DNA of 57,785 nucleotides from an uncultured Candidatus Sumerlaeota bacterium (GCA_964389675.1 CAYMEV010000022.1:1-57785), one strand, 5' to 3'; counted from the first letter of the stretch, positions 14,162 through 15,627 are shown. The notes: generated by a model from the sequence alone, not told the origin. Translations and numbers: made by a program.

Positions 14162-14485
14162 TCAAGTACCTCTTCTTTTGATAAGGTATGCCAGAAGGGC
14201 TTTTTCTGCAAATCCCGCAATAAATGCAAAGGCAATACATATACCCAGCATAAAAAAGGATGTAAGCGGTATATGTTTTGCAAAAAGGTCTATTATATAC
14301 CAGAAAACCATGGCGTTAAACGAGATAAAAAGGCCAAGGAGCCCGCAGGTCCACCAGGATTTACTCTTCATTCTGTATGATATGAGCAGGATTGTGACAG
14401 AAAGTATGAGCATGGACAGAGAAATATAAGGGATTATTGCATCCCAGTCCTGACAGGTGATAATTCTGTTTAAAAATTTTATCAT
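14162..14485 (-). CDS. Small membrane protein (about 3 TM)
   Basis: Hydrophobic ORF directly downstream of rnpB. Confidence 0.55.
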   Translation of the reverse strand: MIKFLNRIITCQDWDAIIPYISLSMLILSVTILLISYRMKSKSWWTCGLLGLFISFNAMVFWYIIDLFAKHIPLTSFFMLGICIAFAFIAGFAEKALLAYLIKRRGT

Positions 14486-14493
14486 ATTAGAAA

Positions 14494-14777
14494 TGGGGCA
14501 GGAGAGTAAGCCGGATTCTGTCGTATCTCAAAAGAGATGGATGGTCATTCATCTATGCGGTCCACCCGGAGATATGGACGGGTCATCCTCTCCTGCTTGA
14601 CCTTGCTCCAGACAGGGTTTATAATTTCACTCTTATCACCAGCAAGGTGACAGACATATTTTCTGTTATACTGATCCCCGGAGTTACCTCCGGCAGGGTG
14701 TTACCCTGTGTCATGCCCTATGGAGTCCGGACTTTCCTCTCTTGTTGAATACAAGAGCGACCATCTTTCCTACCCCA
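14494..14777 (-). ncRNA. rnpB: RNase P RNA, reduced type A-like
   Basis: The minus strand carries GAGGAAAGTCCGG and ACAGAATCCGGCTTA (P4). Helices P1-P3, P5-P12, P15-P17 and P19 can be paired by eye. Confidence 0.93.
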
Positions 14778-15501
14778 GACCATTATCATTGTTATTTTCT
14801 TCACTGTAAAGCAAAATTCTGTTACAGCCTTCACAAAAGCATATTTTTTTCTGGGAACGAACCTCATTTATTGTCTGAGGACGAACTCTAATGCCGCATT
14901 GAGTGCATACATGAGAGTCCAGTATGCTTGTAGCAATACCCTTCCTGTTTTTAAGAATGAGATTATACCTTTCGCGGATATCATCCTCAAGGCCGCTGGA
15001 TATCTCTTCACGCCTTCTGGTAAACTCAGCAAGCTTATTTTGATTCTCTTCCAGAATCTTCTTCAGTTCCTCGATCTCCCTGCTGATTATCCTGCCTTCC
15101 TGTACCTGTTTGTGCTCCAGGTGTTTTATGTCAGCCTGCTGGTCTTCTTCGGAAAGCATGAAAAGAATGATTTCCTTTTCGGTATTGTCCTTTTTTTCTT
15201 CAAGAAAGGATACTTCATGCTGTAGAGTGGACAGTTCCTTATTGCTTTTAAGATTCCACCTTTTTGATTCCAGTTCCTTTATCTTGTTTTCAAGTTCTTT
15301 AAGCTCAACATCCTTAAGGTCCTGGTCTATTTTCTGCTGTTTAAGCTTCTGCCTGGCGGTATTCAGTTGTTGTGTAACGGTGTCTAATGTGCTTTGTCTC
15401 TGATTGATCTGAATGGGTATCTCCTGGATCTTCTGATTGATATCGACGATAGCCTTGTCAATATCATGCAGTTCAAATAGAACTTTGTAAGTCTTATCCA
15501 T
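14770..15501 (-). CDS. Coiled-coil protein with C4-type zinc ribbon (DUF164-like)
   Basis: Long coiled coil followed by CTQC...CEGCNRIL. Confidence 0.88.
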   Translation of the reverse strand: MDKTYKVLFELHDIDKAIVDINQKIQEIPIQINQRQSTLDTVTQQLNTARQKLKQQKIDQDLKDVELKELENKIKELESKRWNLKSNKELSTLQHEVSFLEEKKDNTEKEIILFMLSEEDQQADIKHLEHKQVQEGRIISREIEELKKILEENQNKLAEFTRRREEISSGLEDDIRERYNLILKNRKGIATSILDSHVCTQCGIRVRPQTINEVRSQKKICFCEGCNRILLYSEENNNDNGLG

Positions 15502-15554
15502 TATATTTTCCCGTAATAGTAAAGAATATAGAGAACAACTTTTTGAAAGTTAAA

Positions 15555-15627
15555 TGGGCGTACTTGGAATCGAACCAAGGACCATCCGGTTATGAGCCGG
15601 AAGCTCTGCCAACTGAGCTATACGCCC
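15555..15627 (-). tRNA. tRNA with CAT anticodon, probably tRNA-Ile2 (lysidine)
   Basis: GGGCGTATAGCTCAG...CCGGCT-CAT-AACCGG...TTCGA...TACGCCCA. An elongator tRNA-Met occurs separately at 40269. Confidence 0.88.

Follow-up and report, generated by a model that had tools for sequence, protein, structure and literature searches.

Is the very compact RNase P RNA encoded at this locus the working RNA of its host, and how unusual is it for a bacterium to dispense with P13, P14, and P18 together? These questions were raised by a sequence-only reading of the window (the whole 57,785-nt stretch of DNA that was analyzed, from an uncultured Candidatus Sumerlaeota bacterium), which described a type A RNA of ~284 nt on the minus strand, took the combined loss to be unusual for a bacterium, and suggested that it might mean greater dependence on protein. 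We addressed them by combining covariance-model alignment, comparison with the sister species and with public sequencing runs, inspection of the protein partners, and surveys of RNase P RNAs in genomes and metagenomes. We conclude with great confidence that the locus is the single functional rnpB of the organism and that it encodes a bacterial type A RNA of ~282-286 nt from which the P13/P14 and P18 peripheral layer is missing.

The cmscan match of the RNA to the bacterial class A family RF00010 (RNaseP_bact_a) scored 184.7 bits, where the gathering score is 100 (E 4e-58), and covered the full model (positions 1-367 of 367). This was the single RNase P match in an Rfam scan of the whole window and the only match to RF00010 (1/1) in the host genome (G000; 3.57 Mb in 58 contigs, 93.8% complete). 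RF00010 was also the top-scoring family of its clan for this RNA, and the P10.1 element of type B was absent. Within the alignment, the block of 44 model positions that follows GUGAA and holds P13/P14 received no bases, which removes from the S-domain the stacked helices that are a hallmark of type A relative to type B; the block of 24 positions that follows the 3' strand of P15 was equally empty, and with it went P18 and its P8-docking GNRA loop. What the RNA keeps is the catalytic core, the GGU of L15, the J11/12-J12/13 module, L8, and a GUAA L9. P4, its flanking conserved strands, J18/2 (AUAGAUGAAUG), the GGU, J11/12 (ACAGAAAAUAUG), and GUGAAA fitted the bacterial consensus with high posterior probability; both conserved-region strands (GAGGAAAGUCCGG and ACAGAAnCCGGCUUA) were aligned at top posterior, with seven P4 pairs around a bulged U (U46), a nucleotide of conserved status.

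A helix map of the RNA contained 85 pairs, none of them non-standard, and placed 170 of the 286 nt in pairs when P4 and a possible 3-bp P6 are included. The helices comprise P1 (9 bp), P2 (7), P3 (7), P4 (3+4), P5 (4), P7 (4 plus a U-U), P8 (5), P9 (6), P12 (2+6), P15 (4), P16 (5), P17 (4), and P19 (5); P10/P11 is present, and the P15-P16-P17 arm is kept together with its GGU strand. All the helices named in the sequence-only reading were located, and its description of a compact type A RNA held in every respect apart from 1-3 nt at the ends (14494-14777 as against 14491-14776): the bacterial class A model fitted best, neither P13/P14 nor P18 was placed anywhere within the sequence, and the P12 loop, said not to be a GNRA tetraloop, is indeed a UUGCU pentaloop. 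Judged by the ends of P1, the mature RNA would span ~14495-14776 and measure about 282 nt. The features of the locus are collected in Table 1.

Table 1. Features of the rnpB locus, in window coordinates, and of the rnpA start region, in coordinates of the contigs named.
Feature	Position	Strand	Evidence or remark
rnpB, RNase P RNA, bacterial class A, reduced form	14491..14776	-	RF00010 184.7 bits, helix map
P1 GGGGUAGGA/UCCUGCCCC	14776-14768 / 14503-14495	-	helix map
P2 GAUGGUC/GACCAUC; P8 CAGGG/CCCUG		-	helix map
P13/P14 junction: GUGAAA (14630-14625) straight into P11/P10 3' strands (UUAUAAACCC)	14615..14630	-	44-position block empty
P18 junction: P15 3' strand GACC plus GC, then AUAGAUGAAU (J18/2) and P2 3' strand	14547..14562	-	24-position block empty
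P4 5' strand AAGUCCGG with bulged U (core, CR-I), pairing with 14508-14514	14727..14734	-	top posterior to invariant GAGGAAAGUCCGG
P4 3' strand CCGGCUU, within ACAGAAUCCGGCUUA (CR-V)	14508..14514	-	cmscan, helix map
L8 loop UAACA on P8, candidate L8-P4 contact (predicted docking)	14699..14703	-	model consensus gUAACg
L9 GUAA (GNRA) tetraloop on 6-bp P9, candidate L9-P1 strut (predicted docking)	14684..14687	-	helix map
J11/12 ACAGAAAAUAUG, S-domain module with GUGAAA 14625-14630	14655..14666	-	high posterior to model ACAGAAAacAgA, GGGUGAAA
Short P12, 2+6 bp (2+7 if U125-A143), UUGCU pentaloop	14631..14654	-	helix map
P15-P16-P17 arm	14559..14602	-	cmscan, helix map
GGGUG joining strand with GGU for tRNA 3'-CCA	14563-14567	-	cmscan, helix map
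Candidate P6, 3 bp: L17 loop GACCC (CCC 14580-14582) with GGG 14716-14718		-	predicted from complementarity alone
P19 hairpin AUCUC-UUUU-GAGAU	14525..14538	-	helix map
Putative sigma-70-like promoter, TTTACA-17 nt-GATAAT	14782..14810	-	consensus match only, 10/12 positions
CT398-like coiled-coil/C4 zinc-ribbon gene, 243 aa	14770..15501	-	PF02591 32.9 bits, PF24481 22.1 bits
107-aa ORF, no Pfam match	14162-14485	-	begins 6 nt past modelled rnpB 3' end
rnpA A10 region, G000	1484-1515 of L034 (contig C16)
rnpA A10 region, G001	~1790-1755 of L075	-

The host belongs to a GTDB phylum of two species in one genus (G000 and G001), and the sister species provided the closest comparison. The G001 homologue is 284 nt long, has the same layout and the same two junctions, and differs from the window RNA at 29 of 286 positions (~90% identity by blastn). 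These changes hit seven pairs: six carry double compensatory changes (three in P3 and one each in P9, P12, where C-G becomes U-A, and P19, where A-U becomes C-G), the seventh goes from U-G to C-G, and none is broken. The remaining 16 changed positions are all unpaired. In public runs, a relative ~91% identical over 14507-14740 was present in two RNA libraries of one hypersaline-lake study (X6 and X7). It has four or five indels of 1-2 nt, none of which falls at the P13/P14 or P18 junction, and four further double compensatory changes in P9 (14692/14679, 14691/14680, 14690/14681, and 14689/14682); a change at 14612 would leave A-C in place of the A66-U165 pair of P7 and so weaken that helix. 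This covariation is drawn from three closely related sequences, one of them known just as a list of differences; among the loci retrieved by the junction pattern described below, L061 alone was a further member of the lineage, and it repeats the G001 version.

Contigs from public runs were compared over 14200-15600, a comparison that cannot show RNA ends. In a DNA run that belongs to another study, a 444-nt Logan contig matched the window without any difference over 14285-14728, a stretch that includes both junctions; the marine-sediment RNA library X5 yielded a 185-nt contig identical to 14585-14769, entirely within rnpB. Presence in an RNA library is by itself no proof of transcription. The contigs from X5-X7 cover rnpB and not the coding flanks (14200-14490 and 14777-15562), and the uncovered parts prove nothing. 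Short, high-depth contigs at 14710-14740, with two or three mismatches, were attributed to other organisms, the P4 strand being universally conserved, and set aside. An assembly artefact was likewise considered and rejected, given the same layout in G001, the recurrence of the G001 version on a metagenome contig (L061), and the identical DNA contig from a separate study. We conclude that the RNA is real and under selection.

Its protein partner is of ordinary size. In G000, rnpA (PF00825, 59.1 bits) lies between rpmH and a yidD-like gene and has an open frame of 113 aa; the match covers model positions 3-107 of 109, and since the frame ends right after the domain there is no extension or extra domain. 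The domain's frame stays open without interruption in G000 and G001 alike, and an RNR-like stretch is kept. HARP (PF08745) gave no match in G000, with a positive control in four genomes. Pop5 (PF01900) and Rpp29 (PF01868), the two archaeal subunits searched for, were not found in G000 either, with positive controls in four archaea, and PRORP (PF16953) matched neither G000 nor any control. Because the genome is 93.8% complete, these proteins are to be read as not found rather than as proven absent. The genome gives no sign of further proteins that would help, and the greater protein dependence suggested at the outset is a possibility of a biochemical kind.

The start of rnpA is anomalous. The RnpA frame holds no ATG, GTG, or TTG before codon 68 of the open frame in G000 or codon 79 in G001, and in the control genomes G015 and G070 rnpA has canonical starts. 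Another frame begins at an ATG that shares bases with the rpmH stop (TAATG in G000, TGATG in G001). It reads MRFVLKKK in G000 and MRFYLKKK in G001 and after eight codons meets a run of 10 A, past which, in both species, the -1 frame carries on into the RnpA domain. The N terminus would read MRFVLKKKNIIRHQSDF... if the mRNA gained one A or the ribosome slipped by -1, and the arrangement may reflect a programmed -1 frameshift or transcriptional slippage at the A10 run. Alternatively, translation might begin at ATT or ATC immediately after the run, or both assemblies might share one homopolymer error. A search for homologues of the RnpA domain returned one candidate, and none was scored. A broader reading, which we put forward as speculative and think rather doubtful, is that RNase P has been remodelled in this two-species phylum into a minimized type A ribozyme, bacterial in its core and archaeal-like in outline, served by a single RnpA that is made by recoding at the conserved A10. 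If so, recoding could set or autoregulate the ratio of RnpA to RNA, and the RNA would offer a natural means of asking if RnpA alone suffices for productive tRNA binding by a bacterial S-domain that lacks P13/P14. Passages of PMC2615603 leave a question of that kind open for the archaeal S-domain.

The genomic setting of rnpB is ordinary, chromosomal, and housekeeping: beyond the zinc-ribbon gene its neighbors are a tRNA gene (15555-15627), recJ, and a prepilin peptidase gene. The TAG stop of the zinc-ribbon gene (14772-14770) falls within the 5' strand of P1, an overlap of 7 nt; G001 reads CAG at this position, so the gene must end elsewhere there. The synteny of a Zn_ribbon_9 gene and rnpB recurs in the unrelated genome G015. 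The putative promoter, which lies inside the 3' end of the zinc-ribbon gene and probably drives rnpB, stops 5 nt short of G14776, where P1 begins, and its -10 element GATAAT is invariant in G001; transcription may perhaps begin at or close to the mature 5' end, so that the RNA would be a primary transcript. On the other side of rnpB, the product of the 107-aa ORF looks hydrophobic as read from the sequence, and a weak terminator-like hairpin (14445-14430) lies inside that ORF.

How common is the double loss? An RF00010 search of 151 genomes, one per family across Bacteria, matched 147. The shortest full-model matches were 241 nt in G015, 284 nt in G001, and 286 nt in G000, followed by RNAs of 292-330 nt; the window RNA is thus among the shortest sampled, its layout ranking second shortest among the full-length matches of the 151 genomes, and its 185 bits compare with about 250-345 typical of the survey. 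Alignments were examined for the 13 remaining RNAs no longer than 330 nt. Two lacked both blocks (G015 and G070, the latter a 0.8-Mb genome), seven lacked only P18, whose absence is thus frequent, three only P13/P14, and one P15-17. Two further loci, L039 (G003, partial, at a contig end) and L040 (G018, 487 nt), are outside the inspected set. With P13/P14 absent also from G029, G074, and G139, besides G015 and G070, these helices are typical of type A RNAs and not universal. The double loss occurs in at least 3 of the 147 families, a lower bound because the inspection was confined to short RNAs and longer ones could combine deletions with insertions.

A strict pattern for the junction signature retrieved nine loci from 185,579 species genomes, and because it misses G070, G002, and G139, for example, its counts are lower bounds. 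Eight of the nine were best matched by RF00010, including those of G015 (L041) and G001 (L045), both of which were identified by contig and blastn and not by a rescan; the ninth was archaeal. The pattern match is the only RF00010 match in G151, G152, G154, and G155, and G153 has two. Among metagenome contigs the pattern matched 14 loci, eight of them assigned to the bacterial model, four to the archaeal model, and two (L060 and L067) without an RNase P match at gathering score; both of the latter run to the contig end. L064, L070, and L060, which are reduced RNase P RNAs or truncated pieces of them, show the double-deletion signature and adjoin arrays of two or three tRNA genes. As they may be phage copies, the metagenome loci were not counted as cellular lineages.

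The same double loss thus characterizes the sole RNase P RNA of at least six other genomes (G015, G070, G151, G152, G154, and G155). The RNA of G015 (L077 7703-7943; G015:C10:27702-27942) is 241 nt long, scores 126 bits, and lacks P13/P14, P18, and also the P8/P9 block. No other RF00010 match occurs in its genome, which is 1.9 Mb and 100% complete, and the RNA sits in a housekeeping setting, among genes for tRNA-Met, tRNA-Val, a Zn_ribbon_9 protein, RNase H, mraZ, mraW, and a PBP, with rnpB between RNase H and mraZ. Since the loss of P8 would remove the L8-P4 contact, which a passage of PMC8457005 describes as ubiquitous in bacterial P RNAs, this RNA is more unusual than that of the window. 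A search of the literature on RNase P RNAs without P13, P14, and P18 found nothing on the lineage of the window. The combined loss is not new for bacteria, and the suggestion that it is unusual was not borne out as worded: it is found in the at least six other genomes given above, and for CPR bacteria it is already in print, in a passage that calls it "not unusual" (PMC8172020). The reduced form is uncommon but recurrent in bacteria, and its architecture is not new.

We propose that the RNA assembles with the ordinary small RnpA and would process pre-tRNAs as RNase P usually does, by cleaving their 5' leaders. The metal-binding active site would be formed by P4 together with the conserved strands that flank it, the GGU of the P15/16 joining strand could pair with the 3'-CCA of tRNA, and the S-domain J11/12-J12/13 module would read the T/D-loop elbow, as the J11/12 and GUGAAA module of the type A S-domain does. 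None of the nine tRNA genes in the window encodes CCA, though the RNA keeps its GGU strand, so a GGU-CCA contact would need CCA addition before 5' processing. Passages of PMC8457005 and PMC2615603 list L8-P4, L9-P1, and L18-P8 as the interdomain contacts of bacterial type A RNAs and treat P18 and P13/14 as a second helical layer that stabilizes the stretched fold. Here the L18-P8 and L14-P8 struts cannot form, and the domains would therefore be held only by L8-P4, by the GUAA L9 on a G-C-rich P1, and by RnpA. P1 starts with four G-C pairs, and we infer that the RNA may rely on its L9-P1 strut. Li et al., in passages on this point, note that bacterial P RNAs without L18-P8 appear to compensate through a stronger L9-P1 and that archaeal RNA may depend on the same contact (PMC2615603).

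We were concerned that an additional, unrecognized protein cofactor might replace the missing struts, as archaeal proteins do. The layout equals that of archaeal type A RNAs, which, according to passages of PMC2615603 and PMC4919922, work with several proteins and are poorly active alone; the former also presents the archaeal S-domain as limiting without its proteins and discusses P13/P14 as possibly required. The candidate would be the zinc-ribbon coiled-coil protein, whose gene overlaps P1 and has a counterpart of the same family just upstream of the 241-nt rnpB of G015. However, bacteria whose RNase P RNA is of full size, for example actinobacteria, commonly have a zinc-ribbon gene next to rnpB too, and in so far as they do, the neighborhood does not single out reduced RNAs. 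G000 yielded no Pop5 or Rpp29, and other bacteria with the double loss carry an ordinary rnpA. We regard such a cofactor as improbable, though the best surviving of the alternatives, and retain a reduced type A RNA working with RnpA as the preferred reading.

It is very unlikely that the RNA is a decaying relic in a cell whose tRNA 5' ends are processed by a protein-only enzyme, HARP or PRORP-like. Such replacement has a precedent in Aquificaceae, where a passage of PMC8172020 describes protein taking over from RNase P RNA, and the noncanonical start of rnpA could be taken as a sign of decay. But all the conserved core strands are intact, the changes between the two species are compensatory with no pair broken, HARP was not found although its control was positive, and the RnpA domain is open and uninterrupted in both species with its RNR-like stretch kept. 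Equally hard to sustain is a phage or mobile-element copy in place of the cellular RNA. Some metagenome pattern loci do adjoin tRNA genes (L060, L064, and L070), but the window rnpB is the only RNase P RNA match of its genome, its flanks are housekeeping (recJ, prepilin peptidase, the zinc-ribbon gene, and a single tRNA), and it holds the same position relative to the zinc-ribbon gene in G001, in an alignment that reaches into the flank. Finally, horizontal acquisition of a true archaeal type A RNA can be dismissed with similar assurance: the RNA does pass the cut-off of the archaeal family RF00373 over the full model (116.1 vs 84 bits), as only 4 archaea of 14 control genomes did, and the junction pattern also matches archaeal RNAs (L044, L059, L066, L068, and L071), but the RNA scores 68.6 bits more with the bacterial model, keeps the bacterial GGU strand and a bacterial-consensus J18/2 (UAGAUGAAUG), and has a bacterial RnpA as its partner, with the archaeal proteins Pop5 and Rpp29 not found.

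With the reading of a single, reduced, bacterial type A RNA retained, loss of the whole peripheral layer (P13/P14 and P18) is not confined to the tiny-genome CPR bacteria or to Archaea. It marks the only RNase P RNA of a bacterium that has a genome of free-living size (3.57 Mb) and belongs to a barely sampled phylum, and of several other, unrelated bacteria. RNAs of ~282 nt with an intact core, GGU, P12, and P15-17 are natural scaffolds for asking how much bracing a one-protein RNase P needs. For annotation, reduced RNAs score low and can pass the archaeal cut-off, and could be misannotated where families are not made to compete within the clan. The understanding of RNase P is unchanged by the finding.

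Compared with bacterial type A RNAs at large (RF00010; E. coli M1 RNA and Thermotoga maritima P RNA), the window RNA shares the full model match, P1-P12, P15-P17/P6, the bulged U of P4, the GGU, J11/12-J12/13, L8, and the RnpA partner. Unlike them, it lacks P13/P14 and P18 and with these the L14-P8, L18-P8, and L13-P12 struts, its P12 is short with a non-GNRA pentaloop, and it is ~90 nt shorter than the 367-position model. P18 is reportedly missing from type A RNAs of Aquificales, and it is lost in those of Chlorobi. These P18-less RNAs keep P13/P14, unlike that of the window. With them the window RNA has in common the loss of P18 and a retained, possibly strengthened L9-P1, a contact treated in passages of PMC2615603. 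Archaeal type A RNAs (RF00373; e.g., Methanothermobacter thermautotrophicus), which in the wording of a passage of PMC4919922 "lack the P13/P14 and P18 regions", have the same outline; the host here, by contrast, is a bacterium with RnpA in which Pop5 and Rpp29 were not found.

The published bacterial precedent is that of Lui, Nielsen & Arkin (2021, PLoS Comput Biol; PMC8172020). In the passages of that paper on CPR RNAs, the RNAs often fall below Rfam thresholds, UGG/GGU is missing in 23 of 35, some are without P12, P15, or P16/17, and one is described as "missing P12, P13, P14, and P18". The window RNA, in contrast, scores well above threshold, keeps its GGU, P12, and P15-17, and resides in a 3.57-Mb genome. 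The other bacterial RNAs identified here, in G015, in G151 and G152 ("Bdellovibrionales" MAG chromosomes), and in G154 and G155, show the same empty blocks or junction signature and share with the window RNA just short blastn matches in the conserved core. The Bdellovibrionales RNAs, at 332-358 nt, carry insertions in P12 and P19, and that of G015 is without P8/P9, both unlike the window RNA.
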